Below, piece after piece: positions 39,870 through 52,180 of a stretch of 62,959 nt of DNA. Both the position numbers and the translations under genes were made by a program. The notes under the pieces are model-generated. The model was given only the letters and a program-made list of their open reading frames with translations. It had not been told where the DNA came from and made no database searches. The stretch covers positions 1-62,959 of the forward strand of contig JANOEP010000029.1 of NCBI GenBank assembly GCA_031441465.1, read 5' to 3'. The first letter of the stretch is position 1. The number at the start of each line of letters is the position of its first letter. Source of the DNA: a bacterium. GTDB taxonomy: Bacteria > Krumholzibacteriota > Krumholzibacteriia > LZORAL124-64-63.

Positions 39870-41324
39870 CTAGCCTTCCCTCGACTCCTGCTTCCGTTCG
39901 ATCAGTCGGTAGCTCTCCACGCCGCCCGAGACGATCAGCAGCATGACGGGGCCCTCGCCGCCGGCGGCTTCCTGCTGCAGGCGGCGCCACGTCGCGGCGC
40001 CGTCGGCTGGCTGCCCGTCGACCTCCAGGACCACGTCGCCCGGGTGCAGACCCGCCTCGGCGGCGGCGCTCCCCGGTTCGACCACGACGATCATCATGCC
40101 CTTGCCGGCCGGGACGCCCAGCGCGTCCCGCAGTCGGACGACCCGCGGGGCGTCCCCGTCGACGGGCTCCGCGACGATGCCGAGCCACGCGCCGCCGTCG
40201 GGTCCGGCGCCGGGGGCGGCGGCGCTCTCCTCGGACGGGGTGACCGACAGCGCCATCTCCCGCCCGCCGCGTTGGACAAGGCAGGCGGCGGCGCGCCCGA
40301 CGGCGGCGTCGCCCACCAGGAACTGCAGGTCCCGGTCGCCGGCCACGGACCGGCCGCCGAACTCCACGACGACGTCGCCGGGCTGCAGGCCGGCTTCCGC
40401 GGCGGGAGTGCCGGGCAGCACCGCTTCGACCAGCGCGCCCCGGACCCGACCAGCGCTGACGAAATCGCTGGTGACCGCGCCGAGGTAGCCGCGGACGACG
40501 CGGCCGTGCGCGGCGATCTGTTCGAAGACGCGGCGGGCGTAGTTGCTCGGGATGGCGAAGCCGATCCCCTGGCCGGCGCTGTTGATGGCCGTGTTGACGC
40601 CGATCACGCGCCCGGCGAGATCCAGCAGGGGCCCGCCGCTGTTGCCGAAATTGATGGCGGCGTCGGTCTGCAGAAAGTCCTGGTAGCGGGGCGCCCCCCC
40701 GTGGATGGCCAGATCCCGCCGTCCTTTGGCGCTGACGACGCCCACGGTGAGGCTGCCCTCGAGGTTGCCGAAGGGGTTGCCCACCGCGATCGCCCAGTCG
40801 CCCACGCGGACGCGGTCGGAGTCGCCGAAGACCAGCGGGGTCAGACCGGCGCGGCCGATCTTCAGCACGGCGAGGTCGCTTGCGGGATCGGTCCCGACAA
40901 CCTCCGCGACGACCGCCTGCTGCTCCCCGCTCAGCCGCACGGTCACCAGATCGGCGCCGGCGATCACGTGGTTGTTGGTCAGGATATGACCCGCCTCGCT
41001 GACGACGAAGCCGGTGCCGCTGCCGGGAGGCGCGAAGGGCGTCCCCTCCCCCGGGCCGCCGGGGAAGAACTCCCGGTACATCTCCTGCATCGGATCGAGG
41101 TCCAGGCCGCCGCGGGGGTCCCGTTCGACGCGGATGTTGACGACCGACGGTCGCACGCGGTCCGCCACGGCCGTGAACGGCGAGTCCGGGGGCGGCCCGG
41201 CGTCCAGGCGCGACAGCGCGCGGTCCTGCGCCGCCGCCCGGCCGCACGGTGAAACCGGCAAGCAAGACAGGAGCACCCCGGCGAGGACGCCGATCAGGAC
41301 TCTGGGGTGTCGGTTGGCGTACAC
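39870..41324 (-). CDS. degP: Periplasmic Do/DegP/DegQ serine protease with two PDZ domains
   Basis: GSGTGFVV, TNNHV, DLAVL, QTDAAINFGNSGGPL catalytic triad motifs; GTG start with GGGAG RBS. Confidence 0.93.
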   Translation of the reverse strand: MYANRHPRVLIGVLAGVLLSCLPVSPCGRAAAQDRALSRLDAGPPPDSPFTAVADRVRPSVVNIRVERDPRGGLDLDPMQEMYREFFPGGPGEGTPFAPPGSGTGFVVSEAGHILTNNHVIAGADLVTVRLSGEQQAVVAEVVGTDPASDLAVLKIGRAGLTPLVFGDSDRVRVGDWAIAVGNPFGNLEGSLTVGVVSAKGRRDLAIHGGAPRYQDFLQTDAAINFGNSGGPLLDLAGRVIGVNTAINSAGQGIGFAIPSNYARRVFEQIAAHGRVVRGYLGAVTSDFVSAGRVRGALVEAVLPGTPAAEAGLQPGDVVVEFGGRSVAGDRDLQFLVGDAAVGRAAACLVQRGGREMALSVTPSEESAAAPGAGPDGGAWLGIVAEPVDGDAPRVVRLRDALGVPAGKGMMIVVVEPGSAAAEAGLHPGDVVLEVDGQPADGAATWRRLQQEAAGGEGPVMLLIVSGGVESYRLIERKQESREG

Positions 41325-41469
41325 GCGGGCTCCCGGGCTGCAAGGACACCGCGGGCCGCTGGTGCGGACCGCAGAACGCGGCAGAGCCGGTCGCTTCGTG
41401 GGGGGAGCGGCTGGGTGGGACCAGGGTCGGCCGGTCGCCGAGCGACCAGCCTGTTGCAGGGATGAACCG

Positions 41470-41499
41470 ATCTTAGAGCAACAGGATCGGCGCGGTCAA
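41470..41499 (-). promoter_or_regulatory. sigma70-type promoter upstream of the degP leader
   Basis: TTGACC-18 nt-TAAGAT. Confidence 0.55.
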
Positions 41500-43765: not shown

Positions 43766-46700
43766 TCATCGTGAGACGGCCACCGGCACGACGCTCGTTT
43801 CGGAACGGCCGCTTCCCTCGGCGACCAGTCGGCAGACATACAGACCCGAAGCGAGTTGCGGCAGGTCCAGCCGGACCTCCACGGGTTCGCCCGCGCGGGC
43901 GGCGGTGCTGGCCGCGACCGCCACCACCTCCCCCTCCAGATTGTACAGGAAGACCCGGACACCGCAATCCCGCAAGACGTCGGCGCGCACGCGCAGCACC
44001 GTGCCCGTCAGCGGCGACGGGTAGCAGACGTGGCTGCCGGCGACGAACAGGCCCGTGCCCGTCGGACCGGCGGGGGGCGCCGGGAGCCACGACGAGCCGT
44101 CGGCGCTCCCGCCGTACATCGGCCAGACCGGCACGGCATCCGCGGTGCCGTGCAGGCTCCAGACCGCCAGGCGGGACACTGGCTCGCCGTCGAATCCTCC
44201 GTCCACCGCGACGCCCGCGATCCGCTCGAAGCTGCCGGCGGCGACCAGTTCGAGGCCCGGCGCAGCGTCGAGATCCAGCAGCAAGGGCGTGCCGGCTGCC
44301 GCGCCCGCCCCGGCCAGCGGCCAGCCGGGAATCAGGACGCCATCCTGGCCGTACAGGAACATGCGACCGTCGGCGAGTGTGAAGAGGTACTGCCGGGACG
44401 CGCCGACTTCGAATGCCAATGGCTGCGGTTCTGTCCCGGGGGCGGCGGCCACGGCGCCGGTTGCCGGCCGCTGAGGCCAGCCGACGCGGGGCGCACCCGT
44501 GCTGCCTGTACAGGCGAACGCGCCGTCGCGGGTGCCGTGAGCCAAGTCGGGTCCGAAGGGCGTCGCCACCGCCGCCCCCACCGGCCAGAACACGGGAGCC
44601 TGGAAATCCGGCAGGATCATGGCGCCGCCGTCCTTCGTCGCGACCGCCAGCGCGTACTCGCGATCCACAAAACCGACGAAGTCGGCGCCGACTTCGGGTA
44701 TCTGCCAGATCTGCGGCCTGATCGCGGCCGGCTCCGCCGGCAGGACGCGCACGGGATCGAACCCGCCACCGTCATGCCGGATCACCTGTTCCCACCGCTC
44801 GTCGACCTGGTTGTGCACCAGCAGGACGAGACTCGCCGCGTCGAGGTGCAGCACCGGCGGCGCCACCACGCGGCACTGTTCCTGCGGCAGATCGACGACG
44901 GCGCCACCCGGCCAGACCCGCAGCCGGCTGCGGGCGCCGTCCTCCCAGGTTTCGACAACGACGACATCGGCGGTTCCCACGACGGGTGGCCAATCGCAAC
45001 CCGTCAACGCCAGCGCGAGCCCGTAGCTGACGGGATCCGCATCGCCATCGACGGCTTCGGTGCCGTCCTCGCCGTTGAAGACGAACAGGCCGGTGGGCGC
45101 CGAGAGCACGATCTCCGGCCGGCCGTCGTCATCGACGTCCGCCACCAGCAGCGGTCCCGTCCAGGCGGCCGTCGTGCCGTCGGCGTTGCGTCCGACGGCG
45201 AGCAGGCCGGGCTCGAGGGTGGTCTCGTGGAAGTCCGACAGGTCGCTGCGGAAGGCCAGGACGCGGCCGCCGTCGGCGGCGGTCACGATCTCGAGCGTGC
45301 CGTCGGCGGGCCAGTCCAGATCGGCGGCGATCAGGTGCATGCCGCGCAGGTCGCGGCCCGGCAACTCGCGTACCGCCGCCGGTTCGGCGTCCCCGAGGGA
45401 CTCGCGCGAACAGCTGAACTCCAGCCAGGGCGCGTAGACGATCACGGCCGCTGTGTCGCCGGGCGCCACGTAGGCGGAATCCAGGACGACGTGGCTGAAG
45501 GCGTCCAGCACGATCCCGGTCGGCTGGCCGGCCGCGGTGACGGTCGCCGGCCGTGTGTCCGGCCCGAACCTCGCCGCACCCTCGCCGCGGAAGCTGTCGT
45601 GATCGCCGCCCAGGAACCAGGCGCTCGGCGTGCCGGAATCGAGATCCTGGATGCCGTCGGCCTCCTCGAGGTCCACGGACTTGTGGGCGGGGTCCGCGTT
45701 GTAGAGGTTGCCTTCGGCGCCCGCCGAGGCGCGAATCACCGACTCGTCGATGTGCCAGACGTAGAGCCCGCTGCCGGCGCCCTTGACGCCTGGTGCACGG
45801 GCCTGGTTCTCGCTCATGAAGAAATCGAACTCGCCGCCGTCGAGCCACTCCCGCTGGTCGGTCGCGGGATCGAACCAGCTCGTGGGCGTGCCGTCGAGGG
45901 AATCGGAATCGGCGTCGTAGAAATCGGGGACGCCGTTGCCATTCAGGTCGCCCGGAAACGAGAATTTACGGTTGCCGTCGGGATCCTGCCGGCGGTATTC
46001 GACCAGCCAATACTCCTGGGGCGCGATCTCCACGCGCGCCAGGGTTGAATCCGCGGCCGGATGCTCGGCGGGATACAGCCGCAGGACGCCGCTCGCGTCG
46101 GGGTCCACGCTGTACGGCTCGAGCCAGCCCATGAGCATCTTGTTGAACGCGCAGGGAAGCGCCGGGATGTAGCCCGCGGCCGTGAACAGCCCGTAACCCA
46201 TCAAGCAGAACTCGCCGACGCCTTGGCTGTCCGGTCGGCCGGCGGGCGTGAAGTCGCTCAGCGAGAGCATGCCCAGGCGTAATCCCACTTCGAAGCAGTA
46301 GACGCCGAGCGAGCCGAAATAGCCCAGGAAGCTCCCGATCGGATCCTGGAACTCGTTTTCCGGCAGGATGAGCACGTGGTCGATCAGGGCGAAGCCCCCG
46401 CCGGGCAGCTGATCGTCCGTGAGCAACCCCGGCTCCTGCAGGAGGCCCTCTTCGACGGCGAGCGCGAAGTCCTCGGGTCCCAGATAGCCGCTGTAGATCT
46501 GCTCGGGCGAATCGCCCAGGATGTCGGTCTCCTCGCCGGCGCCGGCGTGGACGATCACCACCGTGTCGTAGCGCGAGAAGTCGACGTCGGCATCCAGCGC
46601 CGCGACGGCGTCGCGCGCCAGCAACACCTTCTGCTCCCCCTCGTCGGGGTGGTTCCCGTACCAGGCCATGGGGGACGCCAGGTTGGCCACCTCGGGGTGG

Positions 46701-47221
46701 ACCCGGTAGCGGAACTCGAAGCGCTCGCCGCTGGCCACACGGAAATAGGACCGCACGTCGGCGAACTGATGAGCGAAATAAAGCGAGTCGTGGGCCGTGT
46801 AGTAGGGATCGCTCTGTCGTGGCAGCGGAAAGCCCTCCAGTTCATGCCCGTAGAAGAGGCTGTCGGCGAAGTCGCACATCAGGATCGCAGCCACCAAGCT
46901 GTCCGGGGCCGCCCGGCCGGCCAGGCGTGCGGCCTGCAGGGCCGGCGAGCCGTCGCGGGCCAGCCGCGCCACCTTGTCGCCGAGAAGTCGATCCACACCG
47001 GACCGGCCGGCCATCCGCGCCGCCGCGGCCTCGCGTGACGGAACGGCGGTGGGCAGGGGTCCTGCATCTGCTGCTCGAGCCGGCGACACCGACAAGCTGC
47101 CGGCCCCGACAAAGACGTGCCATGCCAGGCAACCGCACAGCAACGCCCGGGACACACGGCCCGAGGGGCCGGCGGTGGCGAGGCGGTCGGCGGCCTGGTT
47201 CATGTCGTTCGGCTTTCGCAT
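43766..47221 (-). CDS. Secreted M6 (immune inhibitor A)-like metallopeptidase-fold protein with FG-GAP repeats and T9SS-type CTD; zinc motif degenerate
   Basis: IVHAGAGEE, VGEFCLMGYG, KMLMGW, EYWLVEYR, SGLYVWHIDE, VDLEEADG; ADLD/ADVDDDG repeats; YPSP..LASGLY. Start set downstream of the promoter (47221 or 47203). Confidence 0.88.
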   Translation of the reverse strand: MRKPNDMNQAADRLATAGPSGRVSRALLCGCLAWHVFVGAGSLSVSPARAADAGPLPTAVPSREAAAARMAGRSGVDRLLGDKVARLARDGSPALQAARLAGRAAPDSLVAAILMCDFADSLFYGHELEGFPLPRQSDPYYTAHDSLYFAHQFADVRSYFRVASGERFEFRYRVHPEVANLASPMAWYGNHPDEGEQKVLLARDAVAALDADVDFSRYDTVVIVHAGAGEETDILGDSPEQIYSGYLGPEDFALAVEEGLLQEPGLLTDDQLPGGGFALIDHVLILPENEFQDPIGSFLGYFGSLGVYCFEVGLRLGMLSLSDFTPAGRPDSQGVGEFCLMGYGLFTAAGYIPALPCAFNKMLMGWLEPYSVDPDASGVLRLYPAEHPAADSTLARVEIAPQEYWLVEYRRQDPDGNRKFSFPGDLNGNGVPDFYDADSDSLDGTPTSWFDPATDQREWLDGGEFDFFMSENQARAPGVKGAGSGLYVWHIDESVIRASAGAEGNLYNADPAHKSVDLEEADGIQDLDSGTPSAWFLGGDHDSFRGEGAARFGPDTRPATVTAAGQPTGIVLDAFSHVVLDSAYVAPGDTAAVIVYAPWLEFSCSRESLGDAEPAAVRELPGRDLRGMHLIAADLDWPADGTLEIVTAADGGRVLAFRSDLSDFHETTLEPGLLAVGRNADGTTAAWTGPLLVADVDDDGRPEIVLSAPTGLFVFNGEDGTEAVDGDADPVSYGLALALTGCDWPPVVGTADVVVVETWEDGARSRLRVWPGGAVVDLPQEQCRVVAPPVLHLDAASLVLLVHNQVDERWEQVIRHDGGGFDPVRVLPAEPAAIRPQIWQIPEVGADFVGFVDREYALAVATKDGGAMILPDFQAPVFWPVGAAVATPFGPDLAHGTRDGAFACTGSTGAPRVGWPQRPATGAVAAAPGTEPQPLAFEVGASRQYLFTLADGRMFLYGQDGVLIPGWPLAGAGAAAGTPLLLDLDAAPGLELVAAGSFERIAGVAVDGGFDGEPVSRLAVWSLHGTADAVPVWPMYGGSADGSSWLPAPPAGPTGTGLFVAGSHVCYPSPLTGTVLRVRADVLRDCGVRVFLYNLEGEVVAVAASTAARAGEPVEVRLDLPQLASGLYVCRLVAEGSGRSETSVVPVAVSR

Positions 47222-47263
47222 GCGGTTTCGCTCCGGGAGCCGGCATCGCCGGCGGAAACGACG

Positions 47264-47292
47264 AGTATAGGTGCGCGTCCCACGATCGTCAA
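47264..47292 (-). promoter_or_regulatory. sigma70-type promoter for the M6-like/PorV pair
   Basis: TTGACG-17 nt-TATACT. Confidence 0.7.
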
Positions 47293-47296
47293 CGAA

Positions 47297-47324
47297 CGGC
47301 CCCGCCGAAAACACGGCGGGGCCG
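47297..47324 (-). terminator. Terminator-like hairpin
   Basis: Perfect 11-bp stem CGGCCCCGCCG-6 nt-CGGCGGGGCCG; weak U tract (UUCGUU). Confidence 0.6.
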
Positions 47325-47510
47325 GGGATCGAACGCCGCCACCCCTGATTGGCATCGTCTTCACCCCTGCCCCGCCGTTCGACGTCGGTGATCATCGGCT
47401 GACCGGCTCGGCTTCCCGTTCCCCGACAGGTGCCAACCTCTTCAAGGATCAGGCCCTCGCCGGTCCGCCAACACGATGGGGGGATCAGATCACCTCCGAC
47501 ATCATGGGGC
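47325..47510 (-). ncRNA. Candidate structured RNA element in the 3' region of the DUF4384 gene
   Basis: Nested pairings GCCCC/GGGGC, GAUGUCGG/CCGACGUC, GUGAUC/GAUCAC, GACCGGC/GCCGGUC around an unpaired UCCCCCCAUCGU. Confidence 0.4.
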
Positions 47511-47511
47511 G

Positions 47512-49293
47512 TCAGCGCCCCTTGCTCCGAGACTTGCTCGATTGCCCGGACTGGCCCGACGATCCGCTGCGCGAGCCGTTGTCGCCGCCGCTCTGCTGCG
47601 TGCCAGACCGAGTGTCTTGGCTTTCGCGAGTGGAACGCGACTGCACGCTGCCCGAGTCGCGGGAACCCTCATTGCTCTTGCCCGCCGGGCGCTCCTTGAC
47701 CGCCGGTGGCGGCTCGGACCGGCCCCCGCTCGATCGCGGCGTGACGGCGGAGGCCGGCCTATCGGGTGCCTTGTGCTCCTCGCTGCGGCCGCCGCTCCAC
47801 AGGCGCGGTCCCTTCGTGCGGGGCTCGACCGGGCGAACCGTTCCCGGGCCGGAGTCGCCCTGATCGCGACGCGGCACCGGCCGGACCGCCCGGTCGCCGC
47901 TTTCGCCACCCTTGCCGCGCTCCGGAGGCGCCGGCCTGACTTCACCGGCCGTGCGGCCGCTCCGCCCGGCCTGGGGCCGCACTTGGGTGCCGGTCGTGCC
48001 GCCCGTCGACGCTCCTGGCCTGGTCACAGCTTCCCCGCGGCTGCCCGCCGTGACGCCGGAACGGCCCGGCACACGGATCCCGGGGGTGCGATCTTCACGA
48101 GTCGGAGGTGCGAAGGTCTGGGACGAGCGCTGCACCTGCGGGACGTCGCGGAATCGAGTCCGCTCCTGGTCCCGGTCGCCATCGCGCACCGCCGCCGAGC
48201 GGGAGGCCATCCGGTCGCTCACCTCGCGGGCGGGCCGCGGATTCTTCACCAGACCGGCAGGGTGATGCTGGCTGTCCTCGCCCTCGCCCCGCTTCATGCG
48301 CTGGTCCTTGCCGAGCGGCCGGTATCGGCGCTCGCCGTCCTTGTACCGCGTCCAGACGTCGCCCCGCCCGCGGGGGGAATAGTTCCAGACGTAGCAGTCG
48401 TGATCCCAGCCCCAGCCATGGTGCTCGGGCCACGAATACCAGGGACGGTACCAGTAGTTGATCCAGGGATTCGAGGTCCAGGGATCGACGTAGTAGTAGA
48501 CGGGGTAGTAGTAGGCCGGGTAGTAGCCGTAACGAACGTACCAGTCGTTGTCCCAGCGGTAATCGTGGTGGATGGTGACCGCGCAGGTGTCCCGGTACGG
48601 CTCGTAGCTCTGCCCGCCGTCGTGGCACTGGTTGCAGAGGTAACGCGGGTGGTCGACGCGCCGGTGGACGTACCAGCTGATGTAGTTCGTGGCGACATAG
48701 TCCTCGGGGTTCTCCAGGCCCGTGACGGCGAAATTCACCTCGTTCATCGCCAGGAAGGGGTCGCCGGCGACGTAGTACGCGAAGTCCCGCGCGCGCTCCG
48801 ACTCGTGATGGAAGTCGACTTCGAGATCGCGCAGATCGAACGGGTAGGCGGAGACGACAGCCTCGACGTACTCGACGCCTTCGTCGTCGGCCGCGAGGAT
48901 CCGCGGCGAACCCGGACCCGGCAGGTTGTAGGTATGGGTGCCGAACACGAAACCGTCGTCCAGTCGGCTCCGCGGCCAGAGAATCGAAACCAGGCCGTCG
49001 GTGTCGATACGGTAGACGACGACGTACGCGTCCTGGTTCGTCTCGAAGTGGACGCGCACCGACTCGCCGCGCTTGTAGACCTCGTCCTGCTGACGGTCGT
49101 GCCAGACGTTCACTCGCAGCGGTTGCTGGTCGTACCCCTGCCAGCCGTCGGCGACCGCCGGTTGCTGAGCGCGGGCCGTGGCGAAGCCGAGTGCGAGCGC
49201 CAACGCCCCGAGCAGCCAGCCGACCGCCAAACGATGGGCGCGGTCCTGTCGCGCCGCCGTCCGCACGCCCGTGTTCTTTGTCTTGTAAGTCAT
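47512..49293 (-). CDS. DUF4384-domain secreted protein with CxxCH motif, Tyr/Trp-rich segment and disordered basic tail
   Basis: Hydrophobic signal; VY.RGE.VRVHF..NQDAYVVVYRIDTDG.V.ILWP (DUF4384-like); CNQCH; R/G/S-rich tail. Confidence 0.8.
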   Translation of the reverse strand: MTYKTKNTGVRTAARQDRAHRLAVGWLLGALALALGFATARAQQPAVADGWQGYDQQPLRVNVWHDRQQDEVYKRGESVRVHFETNQDAYVVVYRIDTDGLVSILWPRSRLDDGFVFGTHTYNLPGPGSPRILAADDEGVEYVEAVVSAYPFDLRDLEVDFHHESERARDFAYYVAGDPFLAMNEVNFAVTGLENPEDYVATNYISWYVHRRVDHPRYLCNQCHDGGQSYEPYRDTCAVTIHHDYRWDNDWYVRYGYYPAYYYPVYYYVDPWTSNPWINYWYRPWYSWPEHHGWGWDHDCYVWNYSPRGRGDVWTRYKDGERRYRPLGKDQRMKRGEGEDSQHHPAGLVKNPRPAREVSDRMASRSAAVRDGDRDQERTRFRDVPQVQRSSQTFAPPTREDRTPGIRVPGRSGVTAGSRGEAVTRPGASTGGTTGTQVRPQAGRSGRTAGEVRPAPPERGKGGESGDRAVRPVPRRDQGDSGPGTVRPVEPRTKGPRLWSGGRSEEHKAPDRPASAVTPRSSGGRSEPPPAVKERPAGKSNEGSRDSGSVQSRSTRESQDTRSGTQQSGGDNGSRSGSSGQSGQSSKSRSKGR

Positions 49294-49321
49294 GACCGGA
49301 CCTCCTTTCGGGTCAGCGCCA

Positions 49322-50230
49322 CTAGAAACGGATCAGTTCGCTGCGGGGCGCACCGGTGACACGCTCGTCCGCGACGACCTTCAGTTCCGGATTTCCCTCG
49401 TCGAACTGGTAAGCCCAGTCGATCTCGACCATCCCCGCCGAGATCGCGTAGACGTAGAACTTCGCGTAATGGACGTCGTTCTCGGGATCCACGACGATCG
49501 CCACGGCGTAGGTATGGCCCTCGATCAATTCCGCGACGCCGATGGCGGAGTACCCGGACGTCGGGGCCTCGTCGACCGCGGCGAAGGCAACGGTCCCGAG
49601 ATCCTGCAGGTAGACGACGCCGAACCTCGCCGAGTAGACGAAGGGCACGCCCCCGACGAAGGCCAGGTAGACGTCGGCGGTCGGGTCGTCCCATTCCATC
49701 CGCCCGTTGTCCAAACGGCTGAAATCGAAGCCGCTGCGCTCGGGGTGATCCCCGTAACGGTCATAGAGCAGGAGTTCGTAGCCTTCGGGCCGCGGCGTGT
49801 CATCGACCGTCTCCCAACTCAAGGAGCTTTCGTTCCCGCTCGTGTCGTAGGAAAGCACCGCATAGTAATAGGTCTGCCCGTCCACGAGGTCTTCGTCGTC
49901 GAACCAGTGGAGTAGGCTGACCTCGTCGAAATTCTCGTCCCAGGCGACATCGCCCAACCAGTGGTAGCGGCCGTCCAGGGGGTCGTTCCCGTCATGCCGG
50001 TAGACGGCATAGCCGGCGAGATCGGACTGGTCCAGGTCGTTCCAGTAGACGGAGACGACACCCTCGCCGGTGACCGTGAAAACTCCGGTCGGAACCGCCG
50101 GGGCCTGAGTGTCGACCGGGTCGTCGTCGCAGCCCGGCAGAGGAACCAGGAGCGCCAGGACGAGAACTGTCGCGATGGCCTGCATCGCCACGTTCAAGTG
50201 ATGTCGATTCTCGGTAAGTATCCGGTTCAT
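49322..50230 (-). CDS. Lipoprotein with a fibronectin type III-like domain
   Basis: GGAGG RBS; LLVPLPGC lipobox-like; PAVPTG....GEG.VSVYW..DLAGYAVYR..YYYAV.SYD..GNES. Confidence 0.85.
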   Translation of the reverse strand: MNRILTENRHHLNVAMQAIATVLVLALLVPLPGCDDDPVDTQAPAVPTGVFTVTGEGVVSVYWNDLDQSDLAGYAVYRHDGNDPLDGRYHWLGDVAWDENFDEVSLLHWFDDEDLVDGQTYYYAVLSYDTSGNESSLSWETVDDTPRPEGYELLLYDRYGDHPERSGFDFSRLDNGRMEWDDPTADVYLAFVGGVPFVYSARFGVVYLQDLGTVAFAAVDEAPTSGYSAIGVAELIEGHTYAVAIVVDPENDVHYAKFYVYAISAGMVEIDWAYQFDEGNPELKVVADERVTGAPRSELIRF

Positions 50231-50280
50231 GGCCCCACCTCCCTCGAGCCGGCGTCACGCCGACCCGCAGGCTCTCCAAG

Positions 50281-50295
50281 GCAGGAGGCATGCCA
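50281..50295 (-). promoter_or_regulatory. sigma54 (-24/-12) promoter for the lipoprotein-DUF4384 operon
   Basis: TGGCATGCCTCCTGC (GG-N10-GC) ~50 nt upstream of ATG 50230, with an AT-rich tract just upstream. Confidence 0.7.
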
Positions 50296-50411
50296 CGCTA
50301 CTTCCCGACGGCCGATTCCGGCGTTTTGAAATGTATTTTACAATTAGGCATGCAGTTACAGAGACGAAAGAAGAATCTGGGCGAGGATGGGTTGCTGAGC
50401 GGGAGCGGCTT

Positions 50412-51640
50412 TAGTGTCCCCCGCAAAGTCCATAGCATCCCCAAAAGGAGACGGGTTCTGGCTGTGAAATTGTCCCTGGCGCGGTCGTTGCCGCGCCAGG
50501 GACATGACCACCAACACCCCCGGCTGGCAACCGCCCCACTGCCCCAACCCGGACTGCCAGTTCCACCAACAGGTTACCCCCGCCTGGCGCTTCAAACGCA
50601 AGGGCTACTTCTCCCGCCGCTGCACACCCACCCGTATCCAGCGGTTCACATGCCTCTACTGCGGACGCAACTTCAGCACACAGACCTTCTCCACCTCCTA
50701 CTGGCAGAAACGCCCCGAGTTGATGTCCCGGCTGTTCATGCTGCTGGTCGGCTCGATGTGCAACCGACAAGCGGCCAGAGCCGATCGGGTTGCCCCGGCA
50801 ACCATCCAGCACCAGGCCTCCCGCCTCGGACGTCATTGCCTGCTGTTCCACGCCAAGCAGATACAGCAGCTCGGCCCGACCCCCGAGGTCGTCGTCGACG
50901 GCTTCGAGACCTTCGAGTGGAGCCAGTACTTCCCCTTCCACCACAACCTGGCCGTCGACCCTGAGACCGGCTACTTCCTCTACCACACCGACAGCCCGCT
51001 GCGCCGCAAGGGGCGCATGACCGACCACCAGAAGCAGCGCCGAGCCGAACTGGAAGCGACCCTGGGCCGCCCGGACCCGAAGGCCGTCCGCAAGGGCATG
51101 GCGGAGCTGTTCGAGGTGGTGACCCAGGGTGCCGGCAAGGTGGTGGTCCGTAGCGATGATCACCCGGCGTACCCGCGAGCCATGGCACACCTGGAATGTG
51201 AGGTCGAGCACCGGATCACCTCGGGGAAGGAGCACCGCGACCAGCACAACTCGCTGTGGGAGGTGAACCTGCTGATCCGCCACGGCACAGCGGCGCACAG
51301 GCGCGAGACGATCGCCTAGGCGAAGCGGCGGCAGGCGTCGGCGGAGAAGCTGGCGGTGCTGCAGGTGTGGCGCAACAACATCAAGCGGCGGTGGGAGAAC
51401 GGGCATTCGGTGACGCCGGCGATGCTGCGGGGGGCGACAGGCCGGGTGTTGACGGTGCGGGACGTGTTGTGCGAGCGGCTGTTCCGCACGCGGATCGCAC
51501 TGCCGCCGAGCTGGAATCGGTACTACGAGCGCAGCGTGGAGACGACGGCGCTGGCGGTGAACCGGCGGCACCGGCTGAAGTACGCGTTCTGAGGAGACGG
51601 CAGAGGCGAGGCCGCCGGGCCGCGCACCCGTCAGGGACAA
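50412..51640 (+). mobile_element. IS1-family-like insertion sequence, ends approximate
   Basis: Contains the transposase gene; only short inverted ends visible (TGTCCC at ~50415, GGGACA at ~51634); no clear target-site duplication. Confidence 0.6.
50504..51592 (+). pseudogene. IS1-like DDE transposase with a premature TAG at 51317-51319
   Basis: Zinc finger CPNPDC..RFTCLYC; VVVDGFETF, VRSDD..AY, RRETIA; the same frame resumes after TAG (AKRRQ...LKYAF). Confidence 0.8.
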
Positions 51641-51649
51641 TCATGTGGC

Positions 51650-51975
51650 CAGAACCAAAGAGAAAAGAGCCAGCGGTCCTGGAGTAGACCGAGGATCCCG
51701 AGTCTCGCCTCTGCGGGATCTGCTGGCTCTTTCTCTGGTCTTTCGGAGTGGGCCGGGTGATCGGAGGGGACCTGAACCACGTTTTTCATCACCCGTTGTC
51801 CGGCTGGTTCGGAACCCCACATTCCTTGCCGACCACCACGGGCCTAGTCGTTGAAAAACACTCCCAGCTCGCCGGTAGGCGCTGAAAGCTGTGGATCCAG
51901 TTCCCCTTCCGAAGTTTCGGCTTCACTGACGGGTTGGTCCAGGTTCATCCCTGCAACTGGTCCCACCCACGTTCA
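51650..51975 (-). ncRNA. Candidate sigma54-dependent structured sRNA (~320 nt)
   Basis: Starts at the predicted +1 of the sigma54 promoter. Stems GUUUUUCA/UGAAAAAC and CCCGU/ACGGG (51780-51860). Ends in the long hairpin AGAGCCAGC..GCUGGCUCU plus UUUCUCUUU. No convincing ORF. Confidence 0.6.
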
Positions 51976-51986
51976 GTTCGATGATT

Positions 51987-52001
51987 GCAGTCGACATGCC
52001 A
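51987..52001 (-). promoter_or_regulatory. sigma54 (-24/-12) promoter
   Basis: TGGCATGTCGACTGC followed by A, close to the TGGCACG-N4-TTGCW consensus. Confidence 0.75.
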
Positions 52002-52019: not shown

Positions 52020-52180
52020 CTTGTGATTAACTTGCTGAATTTTAATAGGTTATAATTATTTATGAATCCGGCTCCTCATCCGGAGGCCTCACGGGAGGCA
52101 AGTCCGTTGCCCACTCATCGCGTCGAATTCCTATTCCGTTGTAAAATAAGTTGTTACGATGGCAATAACTTTAATAGCGA
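52020..52180. promoter_or_regulatory. AT-rich IHF-like and enhancer (UAS)-like zone
   Basis: TAACTTGCTGAAT (IHF-like); imperfect palindromes GTAA-N9-TTAC and GTTGTTAC-N4-GCAATAAC. Confidence 0.45.

Follow-up and report, generated by a model that had tools for sequence, protein, structure and literature searches.

The contig JANOEP010000029.1 of a Krumholzibacteriota bacterium (GenBank assembly GCA_031441465.1), analysed over positions 1 to 62,959 and referred to below as the window, carries two minus-strand features that match one another in inverted orientation: the leader of degP, a Do-family serine protease gene, and the 5' end of a predicted non-coding RNA preceded by a sigma54-type promoter motif. 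On comparative evidence the RNA 5' end and the degP leader almost certainly bind each other, and by the same sequence evidence the RNA is a new family of small RNA (sRNA) with the degP leader as a well-supported direct target. It is highly probable, in our judgement, that this trans RNA-RNA pairing is real and regulates degP. Feature coordinates are collected in Table 1.

A bipartite inverted match between two loci

The 28-mer GGTTCATCCCTGCAACTGGTCCCACCCA occupies positions 51942-51969 of the plus strand, and its inverted counterpart lies ~10.5 kb away at the degP leader. There the minus strand reads GGTTCATCCCTGCAAC (41468-41453), followed by 28 nt (41452-41425) and then by CTGGTCCCACCCA (41424-41412); since the halves of this left copy have one C in common, the matched nucleotides number 28. 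The halves are called site A (16 nt) and site B (13 nt). This arrangement was first described in a first-pass annotation made from the DNA letters alone, and the 16 + 13 nt match with its 28-nt spacer is found as described on both strands. So is the self-folding of the spacer, which forms a 10-bp stem with one G-U pair and a UCG loop. As the two features share the minus strand, their transcripts would be complementary to each other. Within the RNA, the 5' arm of the first stem-loop (SL1) is complementary to site B and its loop to site A (A-complement at 51957-51942).

Inverted 16-mers are common in this window of 70% GC. It holds 11 exact inverted 16-mer pairs, compared with 1-6 in 20 dinucleotide shuffles, and 330 inverted pairs at looser settings; the annotation, which expected about one such pair by chance, had thus set the single 16-mer background too low. 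The 13-mer on its own is likewise unremarkable, with 3 matches at two mismatches or fewer vs 2.01 expected and 28 of 100 shuffles reaching 3. At the same stringency the 16-mer has 2 matches vs 0.04 expected, and the colinear two-part match occurs once in the window vs never in 20/20 dinucleotide shuffles, in line with the annotation's view that a second colinear half would not arise by chance. The assembly searched comprises 3,492,914 bases in 74 contigs at a completeness of 96.8%, and exact occurrences of both halves fall only at these two loci. With two copies in 3.49 Mb the motif is not a dispersed repeat, and the high-copy case that the annotation had named as its refutation was not found. 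A chance match or the remnants of a dispersed repeat would also have to account for conservation and co-variation in 20 genomes, and we give such an origin almost no weight.

Each copy stands in a fixed position relative to a predicted promoter. The right copy begins ~6 nt downstream of the start predicted from the sigma54 promoter of the RNA, a motif-only prediction lying 10.5 kb from degP. A sigma54 motif is present at all 20 RNA loci compared (14/15 by regular expression, the fifteenth, in genome G048, by eye as TGGCAC-N5-TTGC, and 5/5 in further genera). A sigma70-like promoter architecture is kept upstream of degP in 20/20 leaders (15/15 and 5/5 in the further genera), and site A starts 1-10 nt past the -10 hexamer in 15/15, which puts it on the transcription start predicted from the promoter or only a few nt away. 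For the degP of the window the match starts 1 nt past this hexamer, which places it at the extreme 5' end of a ~140-nt 5' untranslated region (UTR). The hexamer ends at 41470, so the start would lie near 41463 and ~11 of the 16 nt of site A would be transcribed; this caveat, already raised by the annotation, stands.

Co-evolution of the RNA and the leader

The main comparison covered the 15 genomes in which a covariance model detected the RNA, to which 5 genera without a model match were added, for 20 genomes and 9 genera in total. Despite lineage-specific substitutions, site A retains 10-19 perfect Watson-Crick pairs in 15/15 genomes. Site B retains 7-13 pairs, or 6 + 6 with a bulge in G048. 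The RNA and leader sequences change together. In the genus of the window (g1) the RNA/leader pair reads GGGAUGAACC / GGUUCAUCCC; in G085 and G087 it reads GGGAUGGA / UCCAUCCC, in G015 GGGACA / UGUCCC, in G017 GGGAAC / GUUCCC and in G048 GUCGCAGGGAC / GUCCCUGCGAC. At site B, G088 has GGGCGGGA / UCCCGCCC, where a U to C change in the 5' arm of the RNA is matched both by an A to G change in the leader and by the RNA's own 3' arm. The compensatory changes that the annotation proposed to look for in relatives thus occur at both loci across 9 genera.

The spacer behaves differently from the sites. In 20/20 genomes one copy is contiguous (the RNA) and the other is split by a lineage-specific hairpin of 28-45 nt (the leader). 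Within the genus the spacer stem is kept by compensatory changes (two altered pairs in G004; U-A to C-G in G003), and in other genera a hairpin of unrelated sequence occupies the same leader position.

The five genera without a model match provided a prospective test. Their degP promoter, a related 5' motif and a hairpin were all present, and the RNA sequence was predicted from each leader and then sought in the syntenic region. In 5/5 cases a sigma54 motif was found 3' of the activator gene, followed by an RNA 5' part complementary to the cognate leader. The sites measure 12 nt (perfect) in G106, 11 nt in G013 and 9 nt each in G012 and G023; G007 has 13 nt with one G-U plus a perfect 13-nt site B, contiguous on the RNA and 42 nt apart in the leader.

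Permutation of RNAs and leaders among lineages gave the same picture. For 7 lineage representatives the cognate site lengths add up to 151, a total that no other of the 5040 permutations equals or exceeds. For 12 lineages the cognate total is 243; permuted pairings average 165 and peak at 220, with 0/200,000 permutations reaching the cognate total. As the genomes are related, these counts overstate independence.

Besides this relatedness, several observations weigh against a trans pairing that regulates degP. Both sites are invariant within the window's genus, where promoters and spacer vary, so that genus alone gives no co-variation. An A-C mismatch falls within site A of G018, the sites of G012 and G023 are only 9 nt long, and for the leaders of G015, G013 and G012 the RNA of a close relative scores marginally above the cognate one. 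Internal non-Watson-Crick positions (G-U 7, A-C 6, other 6) show no wobble preference. A simple terminator scan called neither of the two terminator-like hairpins of the RNA (T1 and T2, below). Hfq (PF17209) had no match in the 96.8%-complete genome, a search whose control was positive in 5 reference genomes, so no known chaperone is identified. Finally, the public runs in which this DNA occurs are two DNA runs of one freshwater-sediment study, with no RNA run among them.

The absence of a wobble preference also suits an explanation at the level of DNA, in which the copies would be shared operators of one protein, or recombination sites of an invertible 10.5-kb segment, kept alike by selection or gene conversion. 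The copies are indeed inverted repeats 10.5 kb apart, and gene conversion would make two DNA copies co-vary too. However, a contiguous copy paired with one that a lineage-specific hairpin splits in every genome is unlike a shared protein or recombinase site, and the half-sites are not palindromic. The G088 change is compensated in the RNA's own stem as well. Inversion fares no better: the relative orientation is the same in 19/19 genomes with both loci on one contig, metagenome contigs are colinear over both sites with no joint at either (such contigs drop rare variants), and general Pfam and NCBIfam scans of the proteins in and around the segment revealed no recombinase family. The split copy, the fixed promoter-relative positions, the three-way co-variation in G088 and the lack of any sign of inversion together argue for pairing at the RNA level, and we consider the DNA-level explanation very improbable. 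One unrelated joint of low support was seen in the metagenome contigs, from 45365 to 50880 (side 23), and was disregarded.

Predicted structure of the RNA-leader complex

Co-folding was performed with the first 90 nt of the leader and the 5' domain of the RNA, with shuffled RNAs as the control. The minimum-energy dimer is a three-way junction, composed of the site A helix, the leader hairpin and the site B helix, in G049, G007 and G000, the last being the window's own genome. Across 13 genomes the binding gain is -15 to -32 kcal/mol, compared with shuffled-RNA means of -7 to -14 kcal/mol, and 0-9 of 100 shuffles per genome reach the observed gain. The intermolecular structure is therefore predicted to outcompete SL1. 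The annotation had envisaged two minus-strand RNAs joined by ~28 bp with the hairpin looped out, and the conserved promoters, the compensatory changes and the co-folding all support this model.

In the mechanism that we propose, the sigma54-dependent RNA, made beside the gene of its probable activator, would base-pair in trans with roughly the first 55 nt of the degP message. Contact would begin between the 14-nt SL1 loop and site A, the single-stranded 5' end of the mRNA. Site B, which resembles the 3' arm of SL1, would then oust that arm and pair with the SL1 5' arm as the helix extends. The leader hairpin would stay folded, which would yield a three-way junction of ~28 bp in g1 and of 17-26 bp in the other genera. 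The mimicry of the SL1 arm by site B would make the junction a built-in strand-displacement switch.

Two other pairing analyses were set aside. Whole-sequence RNAduplex of leader and RNA gave meaningless all-over pairing in these GC-rich RNAs, and a search for a third pairing site between the RNA stretch UCGGAAGGGGAAC and the degP leader found nothing consistent; the stretch pairs inside the RNA's own long-range helix. As for other targets, the RNA 5' domain has 10 further 12-mer matches in the genome vs ~7 by chance on a rough estimate, and with numbers so near chance no second target is proposed.

Extent, structure and distribution of the RNA

The existence of the RNA proposed by the annotation is supported, while its extent needs revision: the RNA is probably ~320 nt long (~51975 to ~51655) with a second structured domain, and not only a ~125-nt form. 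The longer extent is drawn from sequence conservation, which continues ~190 nt past the first 140 nt, and from a consensus structure that also reaches beyond the first domain. In an RNAalifold consensus of 11 sequences, 88 pairs were predicted, of which 25 show compensatory changes. Three elements make up the first 140 nt, namely SL1, a small hairpin and a further hairpin with a U-run behind it (T1), with 5 covarying pairs. SL1 stem pairs covary from CG to GC, and from UA to CG in G088. The full consensus adds a second domain and a 20-bp long-range helix around the first hairpin and the U-run; its last element is a terminal hairpin with a U-rich tail (T2), the probable 3' end of the long form.

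T1 could be either an internal terminator, giving a short isoform, or an internal hairpin. A ~125-nt isoform ending at the U-run 51858-51854 is perhaps made as well; in the long form this U-run (columns 124-129) pairs with a downstream GAAAA (columns 195-200). The second domain (51655-51850, minus strand) is conserved in two genera and includes a hairpin with an invariant loop region GUGGGGUCC. This domain may decide between the short and the long isoform.

The loop of SL1 also invites a protein-centred explanation, in which the RNA would mainly titrate a protein such as CsrA through loop-borne GGA motifs and the leader 5' end would act as a sponge or competitor, so that regulation would run from the mRNA to the RNA. 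The genome encodes CsrA, and Hfq was not found in it. The loop core AGGGA is kept in 18/20 RNAs (G012 has CAGGAGG, and the G023 loop is unclear), and the loop GCAGGGAUGA resembles the CsrA consensus from SELEX (systematic evolution of ligands by exponential enrichment). The conserved GGA-rich stretch UCGGAAGGGGAAC, which has no partner in the degP leader, would provide a second site, but in the 320-nt form it is taken up by the long-range helix. Moreover, the nucleotides on either side of the GGA differ between lineages in step with the leader, a pattern that base pairing would produce and a protein site would not. We regard this explanation as unlikely.

By BLAST the RNA was detected in 7/41 relatives, with the window's genome counted, and by the covariance model in 15/91 genomes of the family, spread over four genera; in 107 genomes from other families of the class the model had no match. 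Rfam 15 gave no match in the window at the gathering score, and at E ≤10 nothing near the gathering score overlaps the RNA 5' domain or the leader. No description of the RNA was found in the literature on sigma54-dependent sRNAs and htrA, on Krumholzibacteria sRNAs, or on sRNAs with enhancer-binding proteins in Bacteroidota.

Direction of regulation

Pairing would alter the fate of the degP mRNA, and possibly also that of the downstream sigma-factor gene. We lean towards activation of degP, by analogy with other 5'-end contacts. In the free leader site A is predicted to stay unpaired, as a 5' tail in front of a stable hairpin, and the genome encodes an RNase E/G; these two features and the known precedents of 5'-end stabilisation are what favour this direction. 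The pairing would shield this tail from 5'-end-dependent decay by RNase E/G, remodel the leader, or both.

The same pairing could instead repress, through RNase III cleavage, RNase E recruitment or premature termination within the C-rich stretches of the long leader. An active activator would then mean less DegP and less of the downstream sigma factor, which might for instance protect secreted cargo on its way out. The site comparisons and the co-folding support the pairing itself equally for either outcome. In this genus the ~28 bp of stacked helices are long for a trans-acting sRNA, and antisense pairs of such length are usually degraded, but the helices of other genera, at 9-13 bp, are short for RNase III. 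The sites also lie 90-140 nt upstream of the start codon, beyond the ribosome footprint, so direct ribosome occlusion is unlikely. When sites A and B are blocked in silico, Shine-Dalgarno accessibility falls from 0.38 to 0.03 in G000, which favours repression, but the folding trends differ between genomes: accessibility rises in 4/15 (G085, G015, G048 and G017) and stays within 0.10 in the other 10/15. This disagreement leaves either direction unsupported by folding. Repression is in our view the main alternative, though less likely than activation.

An anti-Shine-Dalgarno (anti-antisense) model was also considered, and partition-function tests lent it mixed support across the 15 genomes. Pairing of the Shine-Dalgarno sequence with site A or B has a probability of at least 0.27 in 6/15 genomes (with site A, 0.77 in G085 and 0.78 in G089; with site B, 1.0 in G015) and of at most 0.14 in the other 9, and the predicted inhibitory helix is ~0 in 5/6 genomes of the window's genus.

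Comparison with known systems

Two published pairs resemble the proposed activation. In the RoxS-yflS pair (PMC5419742), a trans sRNA is reported to bind the 5'-terminal nucleotides of its target mRNA, at a distance from the start codon, which makes the mRNA more stable and improves ribosome binding. The pairing described here likewise covers the predicted extreme 5' end of the degP mRNA. RoxS is reported to block RNase J1 and uses a C-rich region on a single site, whereas here a G-rich loop and a stem arm would engage two sites around a hairpin. RNase J was not found in this genome, where RNase E/G is present, so the RoxS mechanism cannot apply literally, a further point against the proposed activation. 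In Listeria monocytogenes the hly 3' UTR pairs with the prsA2 5' UTR and stabilises this envelope-chaperone mRNA, which couples substrate and chaperone supply (PMC8722363). The present system would share a coupling to secreted proteins, in this case a putative one to a neighbouring operon. Unlike the Listeria regulator, which lies within the mRNA of the substrate, the present RNA would be an independent transcript, made from a sigma54 promoter of its own next to an operon that has a second sigma54 motif.

Several sigma54-dependent sRNAs are known together with their enhancer-binding proteins, including Qrr1-4 with LuxO, GlmY-GlmZ with GlrR, CrcZ with CbrB, and Pxr in Myxococcus, and in several of these the activator gene is adjacent. 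The RNA of the window resembles them in its predicted -24/-12 promoter and adjacent activator; target, structure and lineage differ, and there is no Rfam match. DsrA, RprA and ArcZ are anti-antisense activators that pair far upstream in the long structured 5' UTR of rpoS. The sites in the degP leader are similarly far upstream in a long 5' UTR, but an inhibitory Shine-Dalgarno helix is inconsistent here. In the plasmid antisense pair CopA-CopT, which is cis-encoded and fully complementary, a loop contact is followed by helix propagation into a stable junction. A loop-initiated contact leading to a stable junction instead of a full duplex is what we propose here too, for a pair that is, by contrast, trans-encoded 10 kb apart and whose complementarity is kept by co-evolution.

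In uncultured phyla, regulatory RNAs and their targets are almost unknown, as genetics and RNA sequencing are lacking there. In this case comparative sequence alone yields an sRNA gene, its promoter class, its probable activator and a direct target, and the support includes predictions borne out in genomes from outside the set on which the idea was built. The pair offers a testable example of a bipartite, junction-forming sRNA-mRNA contact at an mRNA 5' end, in a lineage without Hfq.

Genomic context of the two loci

Genomic neighborhood analysis identifies a probable regulator. The gene of the sigma54 enhancer-binding protein lies directly upstream of the RNA gene, and its ortholog adjoins the RNA locus in 9/9 and 5/5 distant genomes. 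Every genome examined has the same gene order: activator, RNA, envelope operon, an oppositely oriented LpxH-like gene, degP and sigma factor. The envelope operon, 3' of the RNA on the same strand, encodes a 302-aa conserved protein, a DUF4384 protein, a 1209-aa protein and a PorV/PorQ-family barrel. The 1209-aa protein is an M6-like inactivated metalloprotease with a sorting tail, dependent on the type IX secretion system (T9SS). With a second sigma54 motif ahead of the 302-aa gene, the neighbouring activator probably controls two promoters, and so probably drives both the RNA and the envelope operon; an equivalent motif lies ~600 nt downstream of the RNA promoter in 5/5 distant genomes. A GGGCAAC...TTGCC/TTGTC-like element is found upstream of the RNA in six genomes of the same genus.

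Table 1. Predicted features at the RNA and degP loci, in window coordinates
Feature	Positions	Strand	Description or basis
sigma54 enhancer-binding protein, 1029 aa	52234..55323	-	TPR repeats, AAA+ sigma54-interaction domain, Fis-type HTH; Pfam, NCBIfam
Candidate upstream activating sequence	52097..52113	-	inverted repeat TGGGCAAC..N..TTGCC, then AT-rich stretch; putative function
sigma54-type promoter of the RNA	51986..52001	-	TGGCATGTCGACTGCA (GG-N10-GC); sequence motif
Structured non-coding RNA, ~320 nt (probable extent)	51655..51975	-	start near 51975 from promoter geometry; 11-sequence alignment
SL1, 5' stem-loop	51930..51969	-	5' arm UGGGUGGGACCAG 51969-51957; 14-nt loop UUGCAGGGAUGAAC; 3' arm CUGGACCAACCC
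T1 hairpin and U-run	51853..51891	-	5 covarying pairs
T2 terminal hairpin, A-tract, U-rich tail	51655..51736	-	covarying pairs 249/330, 250/329, 271/287
Second sigma54-type motif	50281..50295	-	TGGCATGCCTCCTGC; ~50 nt upstream of the 302-aa gene heading the envelope operon
degP promoter, sigma70-like	41470..41499	-	TTGACC, 18 nt, TAAGAT; promoter scan, 1 found vs 0.0 expected
Leader site A	41453..41468	-	GGUUCAUCCCUGCAAC; extreme 5' end of predicted degP mRNA; complementary to SL1 loop
Spacer hairpin	41425..41452	-	10-bp stem with one G-U (41451-41442 / 41438-41429), 3-nt loop UCG; third arm of the predicted junction
Leader site B	41412..41424	-	CUGGUCCCACCCA; complementary to SL1 5' arm; resembles SL1 3' arm
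Remaining conserved degP 5' UTR	41325..41411	-	C-rich-loop hairpin 41409-41392; Shine-Dalgarno GGGAG 41334-41330; long invariant stretches within the genus
degP/htrA, Do-family serine protease, two PDZ domains	39870..41324	-	GTG start; Pfam; NCBIfam TIGR02037 E 1.3e-103, under the curated cut-off
Alternative sigma-70-family factor, 282 aa	38955..39803	-	66 nt 3' of degP; Pfam/NCBIfam

Downstream of degP, the alternative sigma-factor gene is possibly co-transcribed with the protease gene, and the terminator scan found no minus-strand terminator between the two. A full-length RpoD is encoded elsewhere in the genome. The nearest relatives of the alternative factor outside the lineage are records from Bacteroidota and other members of the FCB group, at ~50% identity. 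The target would thus be the main quality-control protease of the periplasm, followed by an alternative sigma factor, and the RNA is probably part of an envelope-stress or secretion circuit. The arrangement suggests that the RNA may couple DegP supply to the envelope operon.

More tentatively, the RNA could act at the post-transcriptional level within a small sigma54 regulon, in an uncultured lineage of the FCB group without Hfq. One TPR activator would switch on the envelope operon together with a ~320-nt two-domain riboregulator. Through the strand-exchange junction, levels of the protease-chaperone and of a co-transcribed sigma factor would follow cargo production. The choice of isoform may depend on the second domain and on the internal hairpin that resembles a terminator. 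We hold this wider scheme to be speculative.

An alignment of all 15 leaders with MAFFT and alifold was too divergent to give a consensus of more than one hairpin. Within the genus, conservation of the stretch 41325-41411 (minus strand) exceeds that of the promoter and of the start of the coding region. A hairpin in this stretch, CGCU-CCCCCCACGA-AGCG with a C-rich loop, is kept across genera and might serve as a contact for a protein or an RNA, or as a region bound by Rho. In G005, of the same genus, two diverged copies of the degP leader occur on contigs C257 and C430, with 80% and 76% identity to the window. Both lie near contig ends of a 540-contig assembly in which the RNA had no match, and a strain mixture or fragmentation is the likely cause.

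Between the 3' end of the RNA and the second sigma54 motif, a 1.36-kb insertion (50296-51655) is found in this genome only and is missing from this site in 5/5 relatives of the same genus. Its core (~50453-51655) is multi-copy, with copies of 88-94% identity on contigs C64, C72, C67, C50 and C30, several of which lie at the ends of contigs; C11, C39 and C55 carry more distant ones. The element has 2-3 times the usual depth in metagenome contigs and contains a 409-aa open reading frame without a Pfam match; it probably represents a divergent or undescribed kind of insertion sequence.

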